UHGV virus genome: UHGV-0140152
Length of the DNA: 19,401 nucleotides
Reading direction: 5' to 3' (one strand)
Origin: a virus
Positions 4,318 to 19,345 of this stretch are shown piece after piece (the stretch's first letter is position 1; the number at the start of each line of letters is the position of its first letter). Made by a program: the position numbers and the translations under genes. The notes under the pieces are model-generated. The model saw nothing but the letters and a program-made list of their open reading frames with translations, was not told the origin of the DNA and did not search any database.

Positions 4318-4425
4318 AGGTCTGGGAGTTACTTCAGTTTTAAAAATGCCTGCTTCCGTATATATAAATAATAAGTAACTTAATAAATATATACGGAAGC
4401 AGGCACTGTTAAGACTCCAGAAGTG
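4318..4425. repeat. structured palindromic element, copy 1 (17-bp stem, conserved AT-rich 22-nt loop)
   Basis: CCTGCTTCCGTATATAT-aaataataagtaacttaataa-ATATATACGGAAGCAGG with flanking ggtctgggag. A near-identical copy lies at 19171-19267. Confidence 0.7.
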
Positions 4426-5204: not shown

Positions 5205-5440
5205 GTTGACTAAATCTCATAATAACCTGAGGTCAATTTCTTCTGTTTGTGACCTCAGGTTAATTTCCTTTATTTATAACCTTAACTTATTAGGCTGCAT
5301 TTTATTCCGCGTCATCGCTTCATTATTTATGTATATGGCGACCTTATTTAATTACGCCCACCTGAACTTACTTCTTTTCCGCCTGTTTCATTCAGCGATA
5401 ATTAACGCATCGAAACGAAACTAAACGAAAGGAGTTAAAA
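5205..5440 (+). promoter_or_regulatory. cassette leader 1 (homologous to 6200-6342)
   Basis: 12-bp inverted repeats aacctgaggtca / tgacctcaggtt, conserved block cctgaacttacttcttttccgcctgtttcattcagcgat and a conserved RBS context. Confidence 0.55.
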
Positions 5441-6199: not shown

Positions 6200-6342
6200 T
6201 CTCATCACCTCAGGTCAAATTTCCTCGTTTGCAACCTCAGGTCAATTTAAGAATGATATCACCTGTATCCCTGAACTTACTTCTTTTCTGCCTGTTTCAT
6301 TCAGCGATGATTATTACATCGAAAACAAACGAGGAATTAAAA
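6200..6342 (+). promoter_or_regulatory. cassette leader 2 (homologous to 5205-5440)
   Basis: Two acctcaggtcaa repeats, conserved block cctgaacttacttcttttctgcctgtttcattcagcgat and GAGGA RBS. Confidence 0.55.
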
Positions 6343-7300: not shown

Positions 7301-7472
7301 TGACCATCCTGTCTCCCGCAGGCTAAAAACACCAACCTCTTACCTCCAGGCAACCGACAAACCCACCTGTTCCCGTCCGGCTACCGCAACTTTCCACTTT
7401 GACGCCTTATTCGTACAACCATAATTAACACCAACAAGAGAACAATTTGTTATTTAGAATAAGGAATCAATC

Positions 7473-8570: not shown

Positions 8571-8801
8571 TTATTTATGTAAACTGATTTCAAATCCCAT
8601 TTCTACAAACGCTTTTAACATTAAAAATATATCAGCGTCGTTCACGTCTGCTTTTTTCCGCTCCTGGTCGCTCAATAAGTCAATTTTGCGCGTCGTTTCG
8701 TCTATAAGCTCGACTGCGCGCCCAGCGTAACCAGCGATCCCAGCGATGCGATTAACATAATATTCATTATGGACGTTAACGCCAGCGATTAAAATAATCA
8801 T
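8571..8801 (-). CDS. small hypothetical protein (76 aa)
   Basis: Track ORF; AAGGAG RBS on the minus strand immediately after the 8824-8841 hairpin. Confidence 0.6.
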   Translation of the reverse strand: MIILIAGVNVHNEYYVNRIAGIAGYAGRAVELIDETTRKIDLLSDQERKKADVNDADIFLMLKAFVEMGFEISLHK

Positions 8802-8823
8802 GCTTTAAAAACTCCTTTAAATG

Positions 8824-8841
8824 CGCCCATATTTGGGCGCA
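8824..8841. repeat. hairpin GCGCCCATATTTGGGCGC (identical copy at 9577-9594)
   Basis: Perfect 7-bp stem between the stop of 8856..9503 and the RBS of 8571..8801. Confidence 0.6.
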
Positions 8842-8855
8842 TGATTTATATGGTA

Positions 8856-9503
8856 TTATTCAAAATATGGAAATGCAGAATTTTCTTCATGATCTAATAC
8901 GAAAGTTTTTTCATTAATATAATTTGGCGCATTATCGCCAAATGATTCTAGTGGTTCGAGATGATTGAAATCATCTTTTTTAATAAAGTAGGATATATAA
9001 TAGATACCATCGTGTAAATCAGCCAAACCACACCAAATATAATAGCCAATAGGATAACATGCAGGACCACGATTCACATAAACTGTAATTTTTCCGCTTA
9101 ATAAATCCATCTCAGCAAAAAAAGCTAATCCGCTTTTTTCCTCTTCTCCTTCTTTTTCTCTGATTTTTCCGTTTAGAACGTCAGCACTTTGAATAAACCA
9201 CGCTCTAGTAAAATCCGCGTTAACATATGTAGCAAATTCGCCAAAGTCGCAATTTTTGCGCAAGTTGGGTAAATCCTCGATTAAATCGAGATTGATATTT
9301 AATTGCGCTGTATTTTCAGCAATAATTAGCTCTGCTTTCGTTAATTCCGTGTTATTAAATTCTGGCTTTTTTTCTGGTAATTTGTGCACTACTTCTTTGA
9401 TTTTGTCAGCGAATTTAATTTTTGATTTAATCAATGGAAGACGAGATTCAGCCATCTCTACGAAAGCAGAGATAAAAGATTCGCAAACAGTAAAAGTTTT
9501 CAT
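8856..9503 (-). CDS. hypothetical protein (215 aa); distant paralog of 5441..6160
   Basis: Track ORF; GAGGAA RBS. Shares ...DFTRAWF...FFAEMDLLSGKITV... and EPLESFGD with 5441..6160. Confidence 0.75.
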   Translation of the reverse strand: MKTFTVCESFISAFVEMAESRLPLIKSKIKFADKIKEVVHKLPEKKPEFNNTELTKAELIIAENTAQLNINLDLIEDLPNLRKNCDFGEFATYVNADFTRAWFIQSADVLNGKIREKEGEEEKSGLAFFAEMDLLSGKITVYVNRGPACYPIGYYIWCGLADLHDGIYYISYFIKKDDFNHLEPLESFGDNAPNYINEKTFVLDHEENSAFPYFE

Positions 9504-9536
9504 ATTAAATTCCTCAATTAAAATCTGAACCAGATG

Positions 9537-9594
9537 AATAAAGCTAATATTAGCTTTATTCCGAGTTTTATCTCATGCGCCCATATTTGGGCGC
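9537..9594. repeat. perfect 24-bp palindrome plus second copy of the GCGCCCATATTTGGGCGC hairpin
   Basis: AATAAAGCTAATATTAGCTTTATT (9537-9560) and gcgcccatatttgggcgc (9577-9594), between the genes at 9608..10258 and 8856..9503. Confidence 0.6.
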
Positions 9595-9607
9595 TTGATT
9601 CCATTAA

Positions 9608-10258
9608 TTACGCTTTAAAAGCATCAGCTAGATAATTGTAGAAATCTTTTTTAATGAAGCGATATTGTTGAGTACCAGCTTTGGCGCTTCCCATTCCTTT
9701 GACTTTCTCAACAAGTCCGAGACGTTCGCAAAGATTGATTAGCTGGTTAGCTTGAGTATAGCCAGCGTCTAAGCGTAAATCATTTGCTCGCTTAACTTCA
9801 TTCATTAAATCAAAAACAGCGCCATTAGTAAAAACTTCTACTTCGTCTTTGATCATGTGAACAAGTGCAAACACGCGTGATCCGCTCATATCGTCTTTGG
9901 AGTACTCGCATTTACCAGCTTTGATAGATTTAACCAGATAAACTAATTTTTCCAGTGAGTAACTGTTAGTCATCGCTTCGCGGAAAAACACTTCTGGTGC
10001 TTGTTTGCTTGCTTTAATCGCAAAGTAAAACACAGCAGACAATTTTTCGTCGTTAACAGCAGACAAAATGTTATTAGAGAAATATTTTAACTTTGTAGAA
10101 GCAGCGCGAAGATTATCTTTATCGTTTTTGGTCAGCGCGCCAGTGCTATTAAGAAGTTCATTCTTTTGCCCCAAGTCGTTAGCTTTTGCACCCAGCTCAG
10201 CAGCAACAATATTAGCAGCTTCAACGATGTTTTTTTTAGATAATATAATGTTGGTCAT
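9608..10258 (-). CDS. hypothetical protein (216 aa)
   Basis: Track ORF; AGGA RBS about 9 nt upstream on the minus strand. No family recognised. Confidence 0.7.
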   Translation of the reverse strand: MTNIILSKKNIVEAANIVAAELGAKANDLGQKNELLNSTGALTKNDKDNLRAASTKLKYFSNNILSAVNDEKLSAVFYFAIKASKQAPEVFFREAMTNSYSLEKLVYLVKSIKAGKCEYSKDDMSGSRVFALVHMIKDEVEVFTNGAVFDLMNEVKRANDLRLDAGYTQANQLINLCERLGLVEKVKGMGSAKAGTQQYRFIKKDFYNYLADAFKA

Positions 10259-10512
10259 GATTTCAATCCTTAGATCAAATTAGAAAATTTATTTCGTTCT
10301 ATCGTTAGCGTGTTCGCTTTCGACGAGTTCAATTATCGATACGCAAAAAAAGATTGCAAGTGTTTTTTCTTAGTTTTTTACAGGGACGAAAGTCCTAGAA
10401 ATAAAAGCGAGATCGTCGAAGGTGTTCCCTAAATAAATAATCTACTCCGGCTTTTAACCTTATATATTTATACGGAGTGGAATAGGGGGTATTAAATGAA
10501 TGGCGTGTAAAA

Positions 10513-10538
10513 TAATAACCGGACTTAGCCGGTTATTA
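10513..10538 (-). terminator. putative terminator of the minus-strand block
   Basis: TAATAACCGG acttag CCGGTTATTA 10-bp stem just past the stop of 10550..11113, with a T-rich run following on the minus strand. Confidence 0.5.
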
Positions 10539-10549
10539 CCCTTATAGAT

Positions 10550-11113
10550 TTAAAATGGAAGGATTCGGTCAACCCAATCGAAGAGAACAATCATTCTTGC
10601 ATGTTCCCTGATTTTCATCGTCACCTGACAAGCATCAACGCCTAACGACACTCCCTCTATTTCACGGCCATCCGCCATGTAGACCCTTATAGATCTGCCG
10701 TTTTGATGAGCTTTGCGACATATCTTAAAAAAGTCACGACGTGATGGCTGGTTGTTCACGTAGTCAGGATGTACGGTAAGCCTGTCCGCAAAGTCCCCAT
10801 CTACTTCTGGAGGTATAATCGTTTCTATAGAGCTAACTTTCCCAAGAGGAAGACGAACTCGACGCTCTTTGCTTCTTGGAACGGGTGATAGATCAAGTTT
10901 GTTGCGTGATGGTAGTGTTCCCTGTACATACATGTTGAATACCTGTCCATCTTCCATCGTGACTTTTACAGGAACAGAGTGTGCCCTCCAGAACATCAAG
11001 GTATGTTCCACATTAGAATAGTCTCGCGGCCATACTTCAGCCGGTATGCCGTATGTAATATCTTTCGTCGTCATATCATTATAAAGTGGTTGGCAATATG
11101 TCCATTGTACCAT
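10550..11113 (-). CDS. hypothetical protein (187 aa; possibly 174 aa from an internal ATG at about 11074)
   Basis: Track ORF. The 11113 start overlaps the lipoprotein gene by 35 nt; the alternative ATG lies a few nt after the lipoprotein stop. No clear RBS for either. Confidence 0.55.
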   Translation of the reverse strand: MVQWTYCQPLYNDMTTKDITYGIPAEVWPRDYSNVEHTLMFWRAHSVPVKVTMEDGQVFNMYVQGTLPSRNKLDLSPVPRSKERRVRLPLGKVSSIETIIPPEVDGDFADRLTVHPDYVNNQPSRRDFFKICRKAHQNGRSIRVYMADGREIEGVSLGVDACQVTMKIREHARMIVLFDWVDRILPF

Positions 11114-11498
11114 CCCAGGTAGTGAAAACCCGATATGTTTTCGAGTCGCCCTGCTTTAGCTTTATTTCTCGTTCCATCCTGGAGGGGTTAAATGCGCAAA
11201 GACCTGAACTTTCAATTGATGTCCCAACGATCCACTCTCCTTCGTTAAGGTAGAAAGTTGCTTTTTCACCAGGTTCTAGCTTTGCAACCGTTTCTCCATT
11301 GATGAAAATGGAAGCGTTACATGCAGAACCAACCAGCCCTTTGTCTCGAACTATTGTTAAACTAGACTCATGTGGTGTTTGATATTTAAATATTCTGCTT
11401 TGAGGTGCATCCTTTGCCTTTGAAACAGATATAGACGAAGACGAACATCCAATTAGTGATGTGGTTAGTGTTAGAATAATTAGGTTTGTTACTTTCAT
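11079..11498 (-). CDS. putative lipoprotein (139 aa)
   Basis: N-terminus MKVTNLIILTLTTSLIGCSSS has a hydrophobic core and an L-I-G-C lipobox, indicating a signal peptidase II substrate. Confidence 0.7.
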   Translation of the reverse strand: MKVTNLIILTLTTSLIGCSSSSISVSKAKDAPQSRIFKYQTPHESSLTIVRDKGLVGSACNASIFINGETVAKLEPGEKATFYLNEGEWIVGTSIESSGLCAFNPSRMEREIKLKQGDSKTYRVFTTWDGTMDILPTTL

Positions 11499-11514
11499 AT
11501 TTGTCTGACTATGA

Positions 11515-12066
11515 TTAATAGTTAACTTGGGTTCTGTTGTAAATGTCTATTAAGAAATCGTCCTGCTTTATGTTTTTACAGGTTTTGTCGAAGGTTAATT
11601 CACCTGATAATATGCAGGCGTTGTATTTTTCGATAAAAATATTTAATGCCTGCCAATTTTTGAAAAGAAAAGAGAAACCATATGACGACTCGCTGCCGTT
11701 TATCAACCCTCGTGCGCTGGGATATTTGTATAAATTTGAATGTAGCTCTAATTTACCAGGGGCAACGTCGCCACAGGAATTCATAATGACGAACATTTTG
11801 GATATATCAAAAGGATAAAAAACTATGCCGCAATTTGTCCTGTTGCCTTTAATATCCTTCACGTAAATATAGTGCTCGTAACAATCTTTACGCGAGGCAT
11901 TTAACCTGTATTGTATTAGTTTGTGCTCTCCTTTTTGAGAGGGTATTAGGTATCGTGTACGCTTGTCTAAGCAGGATTTCGTCTTTGTACGGTATTGCGA
12001 CATACTGCTCTTTATTTCCGCTGCACTTAGAAAGTTCTCATTAAAAGGCAAATGTCCCATTTGCAC
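11515..12066 (-). CDS. hypothetical protein (183 aa) homologous to the N-terminal domain of the HNH protein at 12312..13292
   Basis: GGAGG RBS 5 nt upstream. ...YGFSFLFKNWQALNIFIEKYNACILSGEL aligns with ...LGYSFAFKNRLSIEMFLITLIDYIDSGKI of the HNH protein. No nuclease motif. Confidence 0.7.
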   Translation of the reverse strand: MQMGHLPFNENFLSAAEIKSSMSQYRTKTKSCLDKRTRYLIPSQKGEHKLIQYRLNASRKDCYEHYIYVKDIKGNRTNCGIVFYPFDISKMFVIMNSCGDVAPGKLELHSNLYKYPSARGLINGSESSYGFSFLFKNWQALNIFIEKYNACILSGELTFDKTCKNIKQDDFLIDIYNRTQVNY

Positions 12067-12152
12067 CTCCGGTTCTTAAGCATAGATAAGCCTACAAAAT
12101 TAATTCAGTCGATCAAGATCTTTTTTCAGCCGGAAGTTTATGTATCAAGAAG

Positions 12153-12168
12153 TGTGATCAAGTTCACA
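12153..12168. promoter_or_regulatory. perfect CRP-consensus-like palindrome TGTGA-N6-TCACA, about 95 bp upstream of 11515..12066
   Basis: tgtgatcaagttcaca inside a roughly 110-bp segment homologous to 13293-13415. Confidence 0.45.
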
Positions 12169-12311
12169 TACTGCTTTGCCAGAAGAATACCATATGCAAA
12201 ACATTCTATTGCTGTTAAAATTTAATCGTTCAGACATAAGGAAGCCCTATACCCTCGACAAATCTTTCTGGTATTGTCGAGGGCATGTTTCACATTTATA
12301 GGTAGATAGCG

Positions 12312-13292
12312 TTAATTGGTGTTTTTGTTCTTCTCTTTTTTGCTAATTTCATCACATGTAAGGTTCATTATGTCTATGTTTTCTTGCTTTTGAAGGTTGC
12401 CGACAATTTTTTTGCGCAATTCATAAAATCGCTCGCGTGGTATAGCTTCCTTGTTGCCGTTGATGTGAAGTATTGCGTGACAGCTAGGGCAGACGGCAAT
12501 CAGATCTGTTTTTGGGTTCACGCTTCGTGCATCTTCGCCTTGTGAAAGTGGGACGATGTGGTGAGCGTGTAGCAGCGTTTTCGTTTCTTTGCCGTCAATT
12601 TCCTTGCCGTATATTTCCGACATCGTTCTGCAACATAATTGACACCTGTAGTCTGCGTTTGCCAGAACGTCATTCCTTAACCCGGATACGCGGCTACGAT
12701 GTTGCGACTGGATTAATCTTGTTTCGCCCTCTATATATTCCTCAACTTCTTCTTTCTGGAGGTCGTAGCTGATTTCTTCTTGAGTCGGATGGACTTTTTT
12801 GTATAGAAGATCAAGATATTTAATGTCCTCTGTTATATATTTGGAATCCTCTAGCGAGGATATTTTTCCTGAGTCTATGTAGTCAATTAATGTAATAAGG
12901 AACATCTCTATCGATAGCCTGTTTTTAAAGGCAAACGAATATCCAAGATGTCTTCTATCTCCTGAATGAATTGGCGTCCAATGAGATTTCTCAATTTTTT
13001 GTGGTGTTACGCAGATACCTTTGCCGATATTGTTTACATGTTCCAATAATTGATAAACAGAATTAATGCGGTAAGCATGTGTTACTAAAGAATTTATTTT
13101 TCTTGTGCCGACGGAGGATTTTGTCATAACAACATGATGAGATATTTGTTTTTTTAAAATCAAATCATACGATGTAGCTTTTTGGTTTTCGCCTTTGTCG
13201 GTTTTTTTTATTAAATTTAGTTTTTTATTAGAGGCTATTTTCTCTATTTCTTCTCTAACTTCTTTTATCGTCATGTAAGTTTCTTTTGTCAT
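12312..13292 (-). CDS. HNH endonuclease, McrA-like C-terminal domain with an unrecognised N-terminal domain (326 aa)
   Basis: C-terminus YRCQLCC...LLHAHHIVPLSQGEDARSVNPKTDLIAVCPSCHAILH is an HNH motif with two Cys pairs, arranged like McrA. AT-rich gene. Confidence 0.8.
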   Translation of the reverse strand: MTKETYMTIKEVREEIEKIASNKKLNLIKKTDKGENQKATSYDLILKKQISHHVVMTKSSVGTRKINSLVTHAYRINSVYQLLEHVNNIGKGICVTPQKIEKSHWTPIHSGDRRHLGYSFAFKNRLSIEMFLITLIDYIDSGKISSLEDSKYITEDIKYLDLLYKKVHPTQEEISYDLQKEEVEEYIEGETRLIQSQHRSRVSGLRNDVLANADYRCQLCCRTMSEIYGKEIDGKETKTLLHAHHIVPLSQGEDARSVNPKTDLIAVCPSCHAILHINGNKEAIPRERFYELRKKIVGNLQKQENIDIMNLTCDEISKKEKNKNTN

Positions 13293-13390
13293 TATAATTC
13301 GACCTACTGGAATATCTTGATTTAAGAGGCTACAAATATCGTTCAGCCAATCAAGAAATTTTTTCAGCCGGAGGTTTGTACTTCAAAAAA

Positions 13391-13406
13391 TGTGATGAAT
13401 GTCACA
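13391..13406. promoter_or_regulatory. perfect CRP-consensus-like palindrome TGTGA-N6-TCACA, about 105 bp upstream of the HNH gene
   Basis: tgtgatgaatgtcaca within the duplicated promoter segment; on the minus strand it is followed by TTTTTT. Confidence 0.45.
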
Positions 13407-13431
13407 TGCAGGTGCGCTCATACACCTGCAT
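13404..13431 (-). terminator. hairpin after the stop of 13440..14006; likely terminator of the helicase operon
   Basis: CATGCAGGTG cgctcata CACCTGCATG, a perfect 10-bp stem, 9 nt past the stop codon. Confidence 0.5.
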
Positions 13432-14071: not shown

Positions 14072-14350
14072 TTACGGCAACCTGCTCAGTATTTCCTCCA
14101 GATCTTCTTTGGTCATATTAGAGTTCTCATAAATACGCATAATTTTCTCACGAGTCTTAGCAGAGACTCCAACGGCAGATGAAACTTTGTCAAATTCAGC
14201 CATTGTCATTGTCTCCAGAATGGCATTGATAACTTCAGCCTTAGACATTTTGATATTTTTTTCTTTTAGTTTCACTTGAAACTTTCCAAGTTTGTCATTG
14301 GCCTTATCCGACAATGACACCTGACAATAAGTTGTTTTCTTTTCGCTCAT
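14072..14350 (-). CDS. small putative ribbon-helix-helix DNA-binding protein (92 aa)
   Basis: N-terminal strand-helix-helix pattern (TTYCQVSLSDKANDKLGKF...MSKAEVINAILETM); start is 2 nt after the helicase stop, suggesting translational coupling. Confidence 0.55.
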   Translation of the reverse strand: MSEKKTTYCQVSLSDKANDKLGKFQVKLKEKNIKMSKAEVINAILETMTMAEFDKVSSAVGVSAKTREKIMRIYENSNMTKEDLEEILSRLP

Positions 14351-14352
14351 AA

Positions 14353-15912
14353 CTAATCTCGTTTCAGAACTCCAAAATCGAATGTGCCATCAATTGGCAA
14401 TACACCTTCTGCAAAGCCAGGTGTGGTGTCGATGATGTGTTTTCGCTCATAAGAGTGAGACAACAGGTATTTGTTGCTAATGTCAATGAAATCAGTGATA
14501 AAACACACGTTTGCCTGATTTTTTTTTGCTCGTAAGCCACGACCGACACGCTGTCTCATTTCAACTTCTGCTTTCCCACCACCAGCAAGAATGACCGCGC
14601 CCACGCTTGGCACATCAACACCGACATCCAGAATAGTCGAGCCTATTAAAACATCTATTTCGCCAGACGCTAAACTGTTCAGCTTTGCTTGCCTTGTCGT
14701 CTGGTTCGATTCCCCATAGATGAAGTCAACTCTAAGGCCGGACTCTTTCATCATCTCCATCAGGATTTGCCCGTGGCGTTTAAGACGAACCAGAGTCATG
14801 CAGTTGAGAGAATGTTGCTTATAGAGCAATGCTTCTCGTACTATGGCCTCGTTTCGTCCCAAATTATACACGATCCCCAACTGATAAGCTTTTTGGTAGG
14901 CAGTGCTCATACCTACCCTAAAATTGAGGTGTTTGTTGGCAAGTTCTGCCTTGATTCTGACCTCGTCTGGTTTGTAGGCAACTTTATGATAAAGGAAATA
15001 TGGCTTTGCCAGAATACCTCTATCAATCAGGTATTTTTCTGTAACTTTAATTTCAATTCGCCCGGCCACAGCCATCAGACGCATGTTGGCTTCTGTAGAA
15101 GCCTTCATGAACGGCGTTGCCGTAAGCGCCAGGCGATAGTCTGCGTTCGTACATAATCTGGCAATGTCATAGAAATTAGAGCCTGAAGACTCATGCGCCT
15201 CTTCCAGAATAAGAAGAGAGACACTTGAAAGGAAGCGCTTCACTAACTCCTGACGTTTGAGGTGGTAGCTCTTCTTATCTGGTGTTGCATCGCGTGGTGG
15301 TTCTTCGAGGAAACTTGCAATAGTTTGAACTGTAGCGACGTTGATATGTCGTGATACCTGAAACTCACCCGAGCCAATGATTCCAACCTTTTGGTCTTTT
15401 AACCACGGTTCGCCATTTTTGGCGCGGTAGTCGATGGATCTCTGGAAGTTTTCGGCCATCTGAAACATCAGAACAGATCGGGTTGTTAAAAATAATGTCA
15501 TTCGACCGATACGTGCAGCTGCTTTGCAGGCAACGTTAGATTTCCCACCACCAGTAGCGATCTGCGCAATCATCATTCCCTCGCGAACCAGTGTTTCCAC
15601 AGTCTGATCCTGATACGCATAATCAGGATTGTATGGGAATGGGTTAACCGCCGGATTTGGCTTTCCAAGCGCCGGGGCTTTGTCTTTGCGGATATGAACA
15701 CATTTGATGCCCGCCTTGTTCAAGTTCGCCGCTACAGGCTTGGCAAAGCCAGCAGGGAACGAGTTTTTACTCCAGTGGAACATCGTGCTTGTGCCCTTCC
15801 AGTCGCCAGTGTCGACTTCGTAGCTCAACATCTGTTGCACCAGTTGCTTTACCTTGTCATCTGCGCCAGAAATAAGCGCATTTACTGCGTTAGATACAAT
15901 CCGAACAGTCAT
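14353..15912 (-). CDS. SF2 DEAD/DEAH-box helicase (519 aa)
   Basis: Walker A ATGGGKS, motif II LILEEAH (DEAH variant), motif III LTATP, motif VI QRVGRGLR. About 110-aa N-terminal extension of unknown function. Confidence 0.85.
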   Translation of the reverse strand: MTVRIVSNAVNALISGADDKVKQLVQQMLSYEVDTGDWKGTSTMFHWSKNSFPAGFAKPVAANLNKAGIKCVHIRKDKAPALGKPNPAVNPFPYNPDYAYQDQTVETLVREGMMIAQIATGGGKSNVACKAAARIGRMTLFLTTRSVLMFQMAENFQRSIDYRAKNGEPWLKDQKVGIIGSGEFQVSRHINVATVQTIASFLEEPPRDATPDKKSYHLKRQELVKRFLSSVSLLILEEAHESSGSNFYDIARLCTNADYRLALTATPFMKASTEANMRLMAVAGRIEIKVTEKYLIDRGILAKPYFLYHKVAYKPDEVRIKAELANKHLNFRVGMSTAYQKAYQLGIVYNLGRNEAIVREALLYKQHSLNCMTLVRLKRHGQILMEMMKESGLRVDFIYGESNQTTRQAKLNSLASGEIDVLIGSTILDVGVDVPSVGAVILAGGGKAEVEMRQRVGRGLRAKKNQANVCFITDFIDISNKYLLSHSYERKHIIDTTPGFAEGVLPIDGTFDFGVLKRD

Positions 15913-15976
15913 AAACCTCTTTCCTTAGTGCCTTTTGTATGTTATTTGGCTATTATAATAAGTAAGCAATTACTTA
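15913..15976. promoter_or_regulatory. compact divergent promoter region with palindromic operator
   Basis: Self-complementary tattataata containing TATAAT on both strands, followed by the palindrome TAAGTAA-gcaa-TTACTTA at about 15959-15976. Confidence 0.5.
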
Positions 15977-16675
15977 GTGGATTGTAGCAATAAAATGGAT
16001 GTAAAAATTACGATTTTGCAGGTTGATGTTGCCAACCTTCGCCCGAATACCTGGAACACCAATTCGGTTGGTGCGCAGAATTTTGAAAAACTGAAAGGTT
16101 CTATCGAAAAATTAGGCTTTTTTAAACCAATTTTGGCTCGTGAAATTGAAGATGGATTTTTTGAAATCCTCGGTGGCGAACATCGCTGGCGTGCCGCTAT
16201 TGAGCAAGGAATTTCAACGGTTCCAGTGCTTTCTGTGGGCAAAATTAGCGATGTCGTAGCTAAACAGATGTCACTGGTGGACAACGAGCGATATGGTGAA
16301 GACGACCAAATCGCATTGCAACGCTTCATTGAAGAAATTCAGTCAGAACTTGACTATCAACTGTCTGAAATCGCCCCGTATGACGACGAAATCTCGATGG
16401 TTTTAGCAAAAGAGGCGGCAATCGACCTTGAAGCACTGGAGGCGTTGTCTCGTGGTAGTGATGAGCCTGTCGATACCGACAAACGAGAGAAAACCGAACG
16501 TGTGGGGGCGGAACATCAGACCATGCGCTTCAAAGTAACTTTCGATGCGTCAGATCGTGTTGCAGAAACCATAAAAAACATCATCAAAGAGCAGGCTATT
16601 AACACCGGTAATGAAATGGAGAACGCTGGTGAGGCTCTGGTGTGGCTGGTCGACTACTACAAGGAGCGTATGTAA
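15977..16675 (+). CDS. ParB/Srx-like N-terminal domain protein (about 226-232 aa)
   Basis: ParB-box-like motif ILGGEHRWRAAIEQG. The track start at 15977 is GTG; an alternative ATG lies at 15995; no strong RBS for either. Confidence 0.7.
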   Translation: MDCSNKMDVKITILQVDVANLRPNTWNTNSVGAQNFEKLKGSIEKLGFFKPILAREIEDGFFEILGGEHRWRAAIEQGISTVPVLSVGKISDVVAKQMSLVDNERYGEDDQIALQRFIEEIQSELDYQLSEIAPYDDEISMVLAKEAAIDLEALEALSRGSDEPVDTDKREKTERVGAEHQTMRFKVTFDASDRVAETIKNIIKEQAINTGNEMENAGEALVWLVDYYKERM

Positions 16676-17343
16676 TGACCAAAAAGTTTGAAATCGTATA
16701 TCGCGACCCGGCAGATCTTATTCCCTATGAGATGAATGCCAAAAAGCATGATGAACAGCAGATCCGAGATCTGGCCGCAGCCATTAAAAAGCGCGGATTT
16801 GACCAGCCAATTACGGTCGATAAGAACGACGTAATTATTACTGGCCACGGCCGCCGTGAGGCTGCAATTTTTGCTGGACTTGAGCGCGTACCGGTTATTG
16901 TTCGCGATGATCTCAGTGATGACGAGGTTCGTGCGAAGCGCCTTGAAGATAACCGACTTGCCAGCATTGATTACGATGCAATTAAGCTACAGAAAGAGCT
17001 TGAGTCGCTTGTTCTGGACGATATCGAGGTTTTCGGCTTTGAAGAGCGTGAGTTGAATGTTCTCGTTGGCAGCATGACAGAAGAAATGGACACCGACTCG
17101 CTAGTTATCGATCTGGGCGAAGAAACTAAACGACAGAAGGATGAACACACCGAGATCAGTCGTGAAGTTGCAGCGGAAGAAGTACGTGTTGTCGACGTAT
17201 TGGGCTTTAAAACGCTCCCTGCTGGCTCTGCCATTGTTGTTGGTGATTTGCTTGCCCACATGGAAGAAATGACGAGAGAAAGCGGGGTAGACGCATTTGT
17301 GGCATATGCGGAGAAGATCTCTTCCGGGGAGATGGCTGCATGA
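16675..17343 (+). CDS. second ParB/Srx-like domain protein (222 aa)
   Basis: Motif IITGHGRREAAIFAG. Preferred start is the ATG at 16675 within track ORF 16642..17343, 8 nt after AAGGAG and overlapping the upstream stop by 1 nt. Acidic C-terminal half. Confidence 0.75.
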   Translation: MTKKFEIVYRDPADLIPYEMNAKKHDEQQIRDLAAAIKKRGFDQPITVDKNDVIITGHGRREAAIFAGLERVPVIVRDDLSDDEVRAKRLEDNRLASIDYDAIKLQKELESLVLDDIEVFGFEERELNVLVGSMTEEMDTDSLVIDLGEETKRQKDEHTEISREVAAEEVRVVDVLGFKTLPAGSAIVVGDLLAHMEEMTRESGVDAFVAYAEKISSGEMAA

Positions 17344-18005
17344 GCAAATACATCATCAACGTATCGTTTCAGACACGCGTAAATAAAACCACGCGCACGT
17401 TGGAAATCGCTGAGTCGTTCGGGCTTGGCCTGGACGAAAAAGAGTGGACGCTTTACGACAATCTGGAGCTGGAAGTGAAGCAGGGCGATGTGGTGTACAT
17501 CACCGGCCAATCCGGTTCAGGTAAATCCGTTGTGTTGCGCGAGCTGCAACGCCAGATGAAGGATGAAGGGCTTTCTGTAGCTTCTATTGATGACTTTACC
17601 TTCGATAATGAGGTTAACGTCATTGACCAACTGGGCAAAACTACCAGTGATGCGCTTGGGTTGTTATCTATGGCAGGTCTGAACGATGCATATCTGTTTG
17701 TTCGCAAGCCTTCTGAAATGTCAGACGGTCAGAAATATCGTCTCAAGATTGCCAAACTGATTGAGTCAGGCGCTAAAGTGTGGGCTGCTGACGAGTTCGG
17801 TGCTGTTCTCGATCGTGTAACCGCTCAGGTTGTGGCATCTAACCTCCAGCGTGCCGCTCGAAAGGTTGGTGCGACGGTAATGGTGGCGACGACTCACGAA
17901 GACTTGAAGAACGCGCTGCGCCCGGATATGCAGATCACCAAGCACTACAAAGAACGCGTGAAGGTGGAGTATCACAATGGTAGTCATGATGAGGCTCATT
18001 CATGA
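17340..18005 (+). CDS. stand-alone ABC-type ATPase, nucleotide-binding domain only (221 aa)
   Basis: Walker A GQSGSGKS, signature-like SDGQKYR, Walker B plus D-loop VWAADEFGAVLD, H-loop ATTHE. No permease gene nearby; start overlaps the upstream stop. Confidence 0.8.
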   Translation: MSKYIINVSFQTRVNKTTRTLEIAESFGLGLDEKEWTLYDNLELEVKQGDVVYITGQSGSGKSVVLRELQRQMKDEGLSVASIDDFTFDNEVNVIDQLGKTTSDALGLLSMAGLNDAYLFVRKPSEMSDGQKYRLKIAKLIESGAKVWAADEFGAVLDRVTAQVVASNLQRAARKVGATVMVATTHEDLKNALRPDMQITKHYKERVKVEYHNGSHDEAHS

Positions 18006-18892
18006 CGGACATCATCATTAAACGCTACCGCCCTGAAGAGTTTCCGCGTCATCTGGACTTTCTGGAGCGAATGACAGTCACAAAGGGAACTGTAGAGGAC
18101 TGGCACGCTCTTAAGTCGCTTCACTACAAAACAGACGGCAAACCTTTCGCGCCAACTTACTATCGCTGCGAACTTGACGACCGTCTGGTGGGCGTCGTGG
18201 TTATGGCTTACCCGAAACTACTGCTGGCACCTCGCCACCGCATGTTTCCTAAGTTGAAACCAACCACCAATACCACCGTGGCTAACCAGTACTGGGGTCG
18301 GTACGTGAATAACAACTTTGCGGTGATCAGTCGCTCAGTTGTGGATACTCAGTATCGTGGCGTAGGCGTCTCTTATCGAATGATTAACCTGGTTAGCAGG
18401 ATGCATGACCGGCCAATCATTGAGATCCAGTCCTCGATGAGCAAATACAATCCCTTCGCCATGAAAGCAGGGTTTAAGTTCATCCGCCCTGAGCGACCGA
18501 AGAGCTATGAAAGTGCACTGCGTGTTTTCCAGCGTCATTTTCGCTCCGACCCGGGTGATAACGAGGCGATCGTCAAAGAGTTGTTCGCAATGAGCGAGTC
18601 ACGTCGTCGCCGTGCACTGCGTGATATGGTGGCGGACTACCACAAGAACAGTTCCCTGGCAAAAGCTGGGCGGAATCGTGGCACGACGATTCAGGACATT
18701 GCCGACAGTCTGGTGGACGAGGCCAGCATTGTGAAGCTGCTCAAGGACATTCACAACCTGAGCTTTACGTCTCCGCTGTATGGTGTGTACCGAAACCCTG
18801 ACTTTGGTCGTCGACTGCCTGACACGCTGCCACTGCTGGCATTCGACAAACAACCTTTGGATAAACCGTTAGAAATTGCTTTACCGGCATAA
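18002..18892 (+). CDS. GNAT-like acyltransferase-fold protein with C-terminal extension (296 aa)
   Basis: Motif-A-like AVISRSVVDTQYRGVGVSYRMINLV and motif-B-like YNPFAMKAGFKFI; start overlaps the ABC ATPase stop. Confidence 0.55.
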   Translation: MTDIIIKRYRPEEFPRHLDFLERMTVTKGTVEDWHALKSLHYKTDGKPFAPTYYRCELDDRLVGVVVMAYPKLLLAPRHRMFPKLKPTTNTTVANQYWGRYVNNNFAVISRSVVDTQYRGVGVSYRMINLVSRMHDRPIIEIQSSMSKYNPFAMKAGFKFIRPERPKSYESALRVFQRHFRSDPGDNEAIVKELFAMSESRRRRALRDMVADYHKNSSLAKAGRNRGTTIQDIADSLVDEASIVKLLKDIHNLSFTSPLYGVYRNPDFGRRLPDTLPLLAFDKQPLDKPLEIALPA

Positions 18893-18901
18893 GGATTTGC
18901 C

Positions 18902-19168
18902 ATGACGTTAACCGACAAACAAAAGGACATAATCAAAACGCTCAATCTCGGTTATGAGCGAGGTCATCTACTTGATCTGGACGAATTGCTTGAAGTTTTG
19001 CCGTACAAGACAACCAAGCAAAGTATCCAGTTCTCAATTCGCGCTCTGATAAAAAAGGGGCTGGTGGAGAAAGGGCATACGCGTCAACGCAGTGACAATC
19101 GCTATCACCGCCGGACTCTTGGGTTAACCACTTTAGGTCGAGCCAAAGCGAAGTTACTGGTGATGTAA
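18902..19168 (+). CDS. small basic protein, possible winged-helix DNA-binding regulator (88 aa)
   Basis: Track ORF; start 9 nt after the upstream stop; HTH-like segment TTKQSIQFSIRALIKKGLVEKG; last gene of the operon. Confidence 0.5.
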   Translation: MTLTDKQKDIIKTLNLGYERGHLLDLDELLEVLPYKTTKQSIQFSIRALIKKGLVEKGHTRQRSDNRYHRRTLGLTTLGRAKAKLLVM

Positions 19169-19170
19169 TC

Positions 19171-19267
19171 GGTCTGGGAGCTTATTTAAAGACCTGCTTC
19201 TGTATATATAAATAATAAGTAACTTAATAAATATATACGGAAGCAGGCTTAATAAGACATGCCCAGA
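19171..19267. repeat. structured palindromic element, copy 2
   Basis: ggtctgggag ... CCTGCTTCTGTATATAT-aaataataagtaacttaataa-ATATATACGGAAGCAGG. One C-to-T change in the left arm would keep a G-U pair in RNA. Confidence 0.7.
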
Positions 19268-19282
19268 TTCAATTAAACACAC

Positions 19283-19345
19283 CAGTAAACAAGTTGGTTA
19301 ATAGATGCAGTAAACAAGTTGTTTTAGAGCGCATGGACGCGCTCT
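19283..19345 (+). promoter_or_regulatory. direct repeats and operator-like palindromes upstream of the next gene
   Basis: cagtaaacaagttg twice; the second copy forms AAACAAGTTGTTT, identical to the palindrome at about 2686-2699. Followed by the hairpin AGAGCGC-atggac-GCGCTCT. Confidence 0.45.

Follow-up and report, generated by a model that had tools for sequence, protein, structure and literature searches.

We examined the gap between two divergent operons, one headed by a helicase gene and the other by a gene for a ParB-domain protein (ParB1), in a 19,401-nucleotide stretch of the virus genome UHGV-0140152 (the window, meaning that whole stretch). An 18-bp palindrome in this gap, TAAGTAA-GCAA-TTACTTA, is a member of a family of sites that recurs about 20 times per genome in related phage-plasmids, nearly always between genes. 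In a lysogen of one such relative, the helicase side of the gap is expressed and the ParB side is silent. We hold with moderate confidence that the best explanation of the whole is a genome-wide operator, bound by a winged-helix-turn-helix (wHTH) protein encoded at the end of the ParB operon, through which the ParB operon would be repressed.

Judging from its sequence matches, the window is part of an SSU5/pHCM2-type phage-plasmid, with ~96% identity to phage Cyrano and to E. coli plasmids of ~108 kb. The 6 kb around the gap matched ~228 E. coli plasmids at 95-97% identity, all hits being plasmids and none chromosomal; the 15 best-matching E. coli plasmid records were 106-117 kb long. Among phages, Cyrano and PhiR41_1 matched the same 6 kb at 95-97% and Salmonella phage SSU5 at ~83%, Klebsiella phage-plasmids matched at ~79%, and pHCM2 (S. 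Typhi) and pMT1 (Y. pestis) were among the relatives of the window. In the DNA around the gap, Cyrano and the Klebsiella plasmid pFF979_1 are only ~66-67% identical. SSU5-type phage-plasmids include pHCM2, pMT1 and many resistance-carrying plasmids of E. coli and Klebsiella, and the control of their switch between plasmid life and phage production is almost undescribed.

The initial annotation had treated the palindrome as a private switch of the helicase and ParB operons, an idea that the number of dispersed copies in each genome does not bear out. In the full Cyrano genome, TAAGT-N(0-14)-ACTTA was observed 13 times with 1.2 expected. With at most one mismatch allowed, TAAGTA-N2/N6-TACTTA gave ~20 sites in Cyrano and ~24 in pFF979_1, nearly all of them in the intergenic DNA that accounts for 13% of the genome. 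Of the 60 permutations of TAAGTA, none was as frequent between genes as TAAGTA itself (27 copies, median 5), and an unbiased count of palindromic words returned the TAAGTA family and AAACAA-N-TTGTTT as the two dominant dispersed palindromes of both genomes. When the two site lists were compared position by position, at least 16 sites fell in matching gene gaps. Matched sites lie ahead of ThyX, the major tail gene and tail gene L, others follow the primase gene or separate CobT from CobS, and one is within the 3' end of the portal gene. Around the enteric sites we found no flanking signals at a fixed distance (information content <0.4 bits). The searchable literature yielded no description of the TAAGTA motif family or of its regulon in SSU5-type phage-plasmids; the Roseobacter phage-plasmid described there is an unrelated 42-kb element and was set aside.

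The family extends well beyond the enteric elements. A profile-free HMMER search with the 88-aa wHTH protein returned 268 remote homologues, and a sub-alignment of these was used to retrieve 80 distant viral loci (L095-L174), many from contigs of ~105-113 kb and mostly of 41-63% GC; a separate protein-homologue search with the same protein found close relatives only. The dominant palindrome in the distant loci was TAAGTCA-N4-TGACTTA, which has the 7-4-7 geometry (arm, spacer, arm) of the window site and differs from it only at half-site position 6. We counted 206 distinct sites of this type in 58 distant loci, and in L109 there were 11 copies in 20 kb, where 0.02 would be expected. The divergent helicase/ParB pair was present in 51 distant loci, of which 33 had a strict palindrome in the gap and many others a degenerate copy. 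The window site is thus an ancient and conserved member of its family, and 7-4-7 the ancestral form.

The position of the sites with respect to sigma-70-like hexamers shows two preferred registers. In the first register, the last base of a -10-like hexamer coincides with the palindrome's first T (14 of 40 enteric and 28 of 206 distant sites); at another 18 distant sites the hexamer is two bases further upstream. The second, which 33 distant sites show, has a TTGACA-like hexamer that begins 3 nt short of the palindrome's end, so that the centre of the palindrome is near -41.5. Upstream of terS in the distant relatives, sites in this second register are joined to near-consensus TTGACA-17-TATAGT promoters. 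As read from sequence, the registers fit a transcription-factor binding site.

Within the window, the gap and the features that border it are laid out as follows.

14353 to 15912, minus strand: gene for a DEAD/DEAH-box (UvsW-like) helicase, first of the leftward operon (Pfam ResIII, DEAD and Helicase_C; annotation of relatives).
15916 to 15926, minus strand: Shine-Dalgarno region of the helicase gene, AAGGAAAGAGG (from the sequence; its TTTCCTT block is invariant in all aligned relatives).
15928 to 15933, plus strand: predicted weak -35 element of the ParB (rightward) promoter, GTGCCT, with 17 bp between it and TATTAT.
15951 to 15960, both strands: symmetric -10 block TATTATAATA (from the sequence and its conservation).
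15959 to 15976, both strands: the palindrome TAAGTAA-GCAA-TTACTTA, member of the dispersed family (from the sequence, its conservation and the genome-wide copies).
15981 to 15989, minus strand: candidate extended -10 element TGCTACAAT (TGnTACAAT) in the helicase direction, proposed from conservation.
15995 to 16675, plus strand: gene for ParB1, a ParB N-terminal-domain protein (Pfam ParB_N).

The self-complementary TATTATAATA, the perfect 7-4-7 palindrome and the helicase ATG, which ends on the minus strand at 15912, are all where the initial annotation had placed them. The gap is short, as that annotation said, though it is most likely 82 bp (15913-15994) and not ~65 bp, because comparative data favour ATG 15995 as the ParB start. 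PGAP, in its annotation of relatives, starts ParB at GTG 15977, immediately after the palindrome. The codon at this position is GTA, ATT or ATA in three relatives (L016, L049, L056), and in relatives of the Klebsiella type one inserted nucleotide shifts it out of the reading frame of ATG 15995; we therefore rejected an upstream GTG or ATG start. ATG 15995 is invariant among the aligned relatives, and the variable positions between 15977 and 15995 follow no codon pattern. Comparison of the relatives thus corrects the PGAP start codon, the true start of ParB1 being most likely ATG 15995. The palindrome does lie ahead of ParB, but it ends 18 nt before this ATG and is not directly at the start. 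No recognisable Shine-Dalgarno sequence was seen between the palindrome and ATG 15995.

When the 82-bp gap was shuffled at constant composition, 7.3% of the shuffles had a perfect inverted repeat (arms of at least 7 nt, spacer of 0-8) and 13.7% a self-complementary 10-mer, so neither the palindrome nor TATTATAATA is significant alone. What lifts the palindrome above chance is that it is conserved and recurrent. Our alignment of the gap (A1) extends to relatives just 66% identical overall, and in it conservation is higher across the gap than in the coding DNA on either side. Among 42 distinct gap variants, out of 94 loci, the left arm TAAGTAA(G) was almost invariant. The spacer in E. coli-type relatives is GTGA in most, followed by GCAA, GCAG, GTAG and GTAA, with the arms mostly kept; the exact GCAA spacer occurred only in this window among the variants compared. 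Yersinia, Salmonella, Enterobacter and Klebsiella types carry TAAGTA-AG-TACTTA (6-2-6), the Cronobacter version is TAAGTAATTACTTA (7-0-7), and some lineages have a degenerate right arm. Across the site lists and the 42 gap variants, mismatches in one arm were never compensated in the other. The gap RNA forms a hairpin of only -4.6 kcal/mol, and the whole gap is no more stable than shuffles (z +0.7). Because imperfect copies are uncompensated and the RNA hairpin is weak, a protein-binding DNA site is indicated; selection for a hairpin, whether of RNA or of DNA, is unlikely, what is kept being base identity and not pairing.

The left arm (15959-15966, and the equivalent position in L006, L079, L081 and L082) is also a short (TAAG)n tract, with n = 1-4 in Klebsiella-type relatives. 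Its copy number shifts the distance from the -10 block to the downstream conserved block by multiples of 4 bp, and this variation may reflect a slippage-driven change of promoter/operator geometry.

The TATTATAATA block holds -10-type hexamers on both strands: TATTAT (15951-15956) and the overlapping TATAAT (15954-15959) on the plus strand, and TATAAT from 15957 to 15952 on the minus strand. The minus-strand hexamer is kept in all lineages of the alignment as TATAAT, TATTCT, TAGAAT or CAGAAT. On the ParB side, GTGCC of the proposed -35 is invariant in close relatives, and distant relatives have at this position TTGCCA, 17 bp, TAAAGT or TATAGT and then the palindrome; we infer that GTGCCT is the ParB-side -35. 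The extended element TGnTACAAT has a plus-strand image, TTGTAnCA, that is invariant in the alignment, and its TG, TA and final T are retained in the further gap variants. The minus strand thus has two conserved -10-type elements, TATAAT and TGnTACAAT, on either side of the palindrome. Predicted start sites are near 15963 (rightward) and 15945 (leftward) for the TATTATAATA block, and near 15974, inside the right arm of the palindrome, for TGnTACAAT. A literature search found no published start-site data for pHCM2 or SSU5-type elements.

The TATTATAATA block resembles the bidirectional promoters of Warman, Grainger and colleagues (PMC12825309), in which a symmetric -10 with hexamers on both strands is shared. 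The commonest start-site spacing of bacterial bidirectional promoters is 18 bp (PMC12825309), and the divergent starts predicted here from TATTAT (plus) and TATAAT (minus) are ~18 bp apart; the same -10 overlap, ATTATAGT, recurs in a subgroup of distant relatives. Unlike those promoters, the gap has a second minus-strand element, TGnTACAAT, across the palindrome, only one direction is active in the Cyrano lysogen, and the starts are predicted.

Other patterns in the gap were discarded. Neither the direct repeat TTCCTTAGTG/TTACTTAGTG nor an inverted repeat of 8 nt, TACAATCC/GGATTGTA, is conserved in the aligned relatives, and both were dismissed as chance. A MotA-box-like reading of TTGCTTAC on the minus strand falls in the variable spacer, and host-factor sites of similar appearance (the RcsB box TAAGAAT-ATTCTTA, NarL heptamers and the TyrR box) mismatch at conserved positions or in orientation.

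Transcript levels were taken from published RNA sequencing (RNA-seq) of Cyrano in LF82 lysogens (S1 table of PMC9928086), as average normalised read counts from overnight LB cultures. With a prophage median, or background, of 9.8, the helicase gene had a count of 46 (~4.7x background) and the 92-aa gene that follows it 114 (12x background). ParB1 was at the floor value of 5, and ParB2, the ATPase, the 296-aa gene and the wHTH gene were near background at 8-9.5. This pattern, leftward on and rightward silent, held in five conditions (PMC9928086, S1). The leftward operon is on in the plasmid state; the rightward one resembles the late genes in its silence. Because the leftward side is on with ParB at the floor, the two operons are not co-expressed, and their co-regulation as one unit, which the initial annotation had suggested, is not supported. 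Its compact bidirectional control region survives as a divergent region with a two-strand -10 block and an operator-like palindrome, without the single shared regulation. The functional link that it drew between the two operons is favoured by the recurrence of the divergent pair in the 51 distant loci and of the module genes in 32-34 of 34 long distant loci. Despite ~80 bp of common control DNA, then, the two operons differ in their regulation.

We then considered which encoded protein might bind the palindrome. The leftward operon consists of the helicase gene and then the 92-aa gene (14072-14350, minus strand). Rightward, the order is ParB1, ParB2, an ABC-type ATPase, a 296-aa protein and the 88-aa protein, beyond which lie a large hairpin, terS, terL and the portal and capsid genes.

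16675 to 17343, plus strand: gene for ParB2 (Pfam ParB N-domain).
17340 to 18005, plus strand: gene for an ABC-type ATPase (annotation and homology).
18002 to 18892, plus strand: gene for a 296-aa protein, given in relatives' records as 'ABC-type ATPase fused to acetyltransferase domain'.
18902 to 19168, plus strand: gene for an 88-aa MarR-like winged-helix protein, phrog_900, last of the operon (AlphaFold2 and Foldseek).

The 88-aa protein had no match in a Pfam scan. Its AlphaFold2 model (pLDDT 82) has a helix-helix-helix-wing-helix topology, and Foldseek returned 2pg4, MepR, ZitR, AdcR and MarR at TM 0.7-0.75; according to the model, it has a winged helix-turn-helix fold. The protein is 78% identical in pFF979_1, and its recognition helix, TTKxSxQFSxRAL, is strongly conserved among the 268 distant homologues. 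The wHTH protein is conserved wherever the motif was seen, and besides the small terminase it is the sole evident sequence-specific DNA binder that accompanies the motif in all loci examined. Because of its MarR-like fold, its conservation with the motif and its place at the end of the adjoining operon, it is the best candidate, and binding of the palindrome family by this protein is plausible. MarR, MepR, ZitR and AdcR share its helix-helix-helix-wing fold. MarR-family dimers contact half-sites one helical turn apart, and the half-site centres of the 7-4-7 site are likewise 11 bp apart. Unlike MarR proteins of ~140 aa, the 88-aa protein lacks N- and C-terminal dimerisation helices.

The 92-aa protein, named by the initial annotation as a ribbon-helix-helix (RHH) regulator, fared worse. 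It had no match to a Pfam RHH family, it belongs to phrog_1466, of unknown function, and its single-sequence model reached a pLDDT of only 56. No homologue was detected in pFF979_1 or in any of 34 long motif-keeping distant loci. Because it is absent where the motif persists, it is effectively excluded as the regulator. The gene is lineage-specific and is among the best-expressed Cyrano prophage genes in lysogens.

The genes from the helicase through ParB1, ParB2, the ABC ATPase and the 296-aa protein to the wHTH protein (14353-19168) form a module directly upstream of terS, and the long distant viral loci that retain it range from 34 to 63% GC. Both ParB paralogues appear to lack a normal helix-turn-helix.

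In the mechanism we propose, the 18-bp palindrome would be the operator of a dimeric DNA-binding regulator that the phage-plasmid itself encodes, and one of the ~20 such operators across its intergenic regions. The predicted ParB promoter (GTGCCT, 17 bp, TATTAT/TATAAT) ends on the first base of the palindrome; with the ParB-side -10 so close against the site, a protein bound there should repress the operon that runs from ParB1 to the wHTH gene. A bound dimer would cover about -7 to +11 and so block initiation of the ParB1-ParB2-ATPase-wHTH operon. The helicase promoter would use TGnTACAAT at 15989-15981, TATAAT at 15957-15952, or both, and would escape repression in the plasmid state. The binder would most likely be the MarR-like wHTH protein, encoded last in the same operon, which would make the site a negative-feedback operator within a wider regulon.

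Several observations weigh against this proposal. A simple sigma-70 consensus scan for promoters and terminators returned nothing in the gap, so the promoter assignments there derive from conservation, and the proposed -35, GTGCCT, is weak. The first hexamer register could in part be the motif's own extension, GATAAGTA, with the flank GAT contributing. Where a site is centred near -41.5, binding could bring activation and not repression, which bears on the sign of regulation predicted for other members of the family; because the terS promoters at such sites are near-consensus, they fit repression better than activation. A rigid dimer should not tolerate the swap between 7-4-7 and 7-0-7 or 6-2-6 seen at orthologous enteric positions. 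As to the binder, the distant loci were all retrieved through the wHTH gene, which makes its co-occurrence with the motif partly a matter of construction, and six wHTH-bearing loci had no detectable copy of the motif. No clear signal of co-variation was found between wHTH residues and the A-type or C-type half-site. The wHTH mRNA stood at 7.8 in overnight LB lysogens, with background at 9.8, and under the other conditions was ~5- to 50-fold below that of a CI-like repressor. With the wHTH protein as binder, the silence of ParB in the lysogen is left without evident cause.

The main alternative, which we consider unlikely, is that the sites are operators of the CI-like lysogeny repressor, in an immunity regulon of the P1 C1 type that silences many lytic promoters, that of ParB included, in the plasmid state. 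In lysogens, ParB is silent, as are most genes that follow a site, and the CI-like gene CYRAN_45 is well expressed, with a read count of 96. P1 C1 is a precedent for dispersed operators, and a genome of 108 kb with many promoters would be expected to have them. In addition, the Cyrano gap beside the CI-like gene (42574-42826, L010) has GGTAAG-TG-CTTACC and extra GGTAAG/CTTACC half-sites, and pFF979_1 has two tandem copies of TTTTAGTAAGTAAyCACATA at 41353-41440 (L012). Immunity repressors and their operators usually diverge fast; the half-site, by contrast, has hardly changed within a clade in which core proteins share only 35-55% identity. Over 81 residues, the CI-like protein retains only 48% identity between two genomes that share the motif. 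The Cyrano immunity palindrome is moreover in another register, its centre 2 bp closer to TAAG, and CYRAN_34, just downstream of a perfect site, is at 4.5x background in the lysogen. The repeats in the CI-gene gaps are related to the dispersed palindrome and not identical with it.

It is distinctly improbable, in our estimate, that the ~20 palindromes are address marks of an undescribed, deeply conserved phage system. Its components would be the module from the helicase to the wHTH protein, always placed just upstream of terS, and the wHTH protein or a ParB paralogue would recognise the marks and recruit ParB clamps of the CTP type and the ATPase. Such a system, if real, would silence, insulate or compact the 100-kb genome in a manner akin to KorB or ParB-SMC, and the copy at the ParB operon would be its own feedback point.

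A reading in which the sites would be parS-like or KorB-OB-like loading sites for the adjacent ParB proteins, which would spread or slide from ~20 places and so silence or organise the phage genome with the ABC ATPase as partner, seems to us quite doubtful. The two ParB N-domain paralogues are encoded directly downstream, carry GxxRxxA-type motifs (GEHRWRAA and GHGRREAA) and are conserved with the motif in all distant loci. KorB, a ParB-family protein, has class I operators ~39-40 bp upstream of start sites, and a centre near -41.5 is common among the distant sites; in N15, too, centromere sites are dispersed. The proteins themselves argue otherwise: judged by sequence, the ParB1 segment that aligns with the Spo0J (1vz0) helix-turn-helix is degenerate and acidic, PYDDEISMVLAKE, without basic recognition residues, and Pfam finds only the N-terminal domain in both paralogues. 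The plasmid ParA gene is preceded by AAACAA-N-TTGTTT and not by the TAAGTA motif, and the ParB genes are silent in the plasmid state.

That the palindrome acts as a small RNA hairpin in the 5' leader of either mRNA, ParB or helicase, with an effect on stability, translation or processing, is very improbable. The arms do pair perfectly in the window, the loop, GCAA here and GTGA in the majority of E. coli relatives, matches GNRA, several family members lie within 13-18 nt of a start codon, and some mismatched copies are compatible with G-U pairing on the plus strand. Such a hairpin would be of low stability (-4.6 or -3.7 kcal/mol), within a gap no more stable than its shuffles, and the common 6-2-6 and 7-0-7 forms leave no sensible loop. 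No T-run follows the stem, and no compensatory double change was found in the 42 gap variants or in ~250 sites; the conserved feature is specific bases and not pairing.

A private operator through which one repressor, the putative RHH protein, co-regulates both operons would suit a site between the two, a 92-aa gene at 12x background in lysogens and an N-terminal pattern compatible by sequence reading with a ribbon-helix-helix fold, but it is scarcely credible against the genome-wide dispersal of the palindrome, a difference of ~10-fold or more in the lysogen expression of the two operons, and the missing Pfam match, low pLDDT and lack of homologues of that protein in pFF979_1 and the 34 distant loci. 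Equally hard to credit is a functionless by-product of AT-rich promoter sequence and (TAAG)n slippage, which would agree with the chance level of the palindrome alone (p ~0.07), the 1-4 (TAAG) copies of Klebsiella types and the degenerate right arms of some lineages, but is contradicted by the genome-wide excess, the synteny and the 60%-GC relatives (11 copies where 0.02 are expected).

For the preferred reading, a dispersed operator bound by the wHTH protein, the kinds of element involved are already known: the promoter-overlapping operator, the dispersed operators of a global regulator and the bidirectional promoter. Like the operators of P1 C1 and of RK2 KorA/KorB, the palindrome family would be a set of dispersed short sites of a global regulator; its members are promoter-proximal, stand at variable positions relative to the core promoter and include one copy beside the operon of the candidate regulator. 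The P1 C1 operators are asymmetric 17-mers; unlike them, the palindrome is a dyad with two interchangeable spacings, and it is conserved far more deeply than immunity operators usually are. A further likeness is to the RinA-type late-gene activators of staphylococcal phages, which are encoded directly upstream of terS (PMC3152322). The wHTH gene is likewise the last before terS, and in the distant relatives the palindrome overlaps a promoter just upstream of terS, with its centre near -41.5; the wHTH protein has no sequence similarity to RinA.

An 18-bp site at matching positions from enteric elements to 60%-GC environmental relatives would define a regulon. The motif also points to candidates for its regulator, in the first place the 88-aa winged helix, and marks likely promoters throughout the genome.

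A 61-nt hairpin with the tip TAAGT-A-ACTTA lies at 19188 to 19248, with a second copy at 4344-4404 and a third in Cyrano at ~31157-31215; it is conserved in relatives, with a variable central base. It has an 18-bp stem (-26.9 kcal/mol, z -8.1), is conserved after the wHTH gene in relatives and is tied to the palindrome family only through the shared 11-mer ATAATAAGTAA. In GenBank, the point at which the SSU5 and Cyrano records are linearised falls within this hairpin or immediately next to it. The hairpin may act as a terminator or a processing site, or may be related to packaging.

The second dispersed palindrome, AAACAA-N-TTGTTT, occurs in the window at 211-223, 262-274, 940-952, 2136-2148, 2687-2699, 19287-19299 and 19312-19324, and in Cyrano in 18 copies (at most one mismatch). 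A copy is typically found 11-40 nt ahead of a start codon and a few bases past a GATAAT-type -10; the plasmid ParA gene and terS are among the genes so preceded. In appearance, this palindrome is an operator that serves another global regulator.

The left part of the window contains families of short direct repeats (996-1083, 5225-5266, 6207-6248, 7325-7390, 5361-5421 and 6270-6330), including four copies of ACCTCAGGTCAATTT, ~30-nt units resembling AAAACAACCAACCTCTT...CAGGCTACCG, and a 61-nt repeat that recurs upstream of three genes. These look like repeated promoter or regulatory modules. The stretch 8800-13400 differs from the closest E. coli plasmids and may be a variable accessory or defence cassette; it encodes, among other proteins, a 326-aa HNH-domain protein (12312-13292, minus strand), whose gene is flanked by 81-nt direct repeats (12089-12169 and 13327-13407) that are 77% identical.

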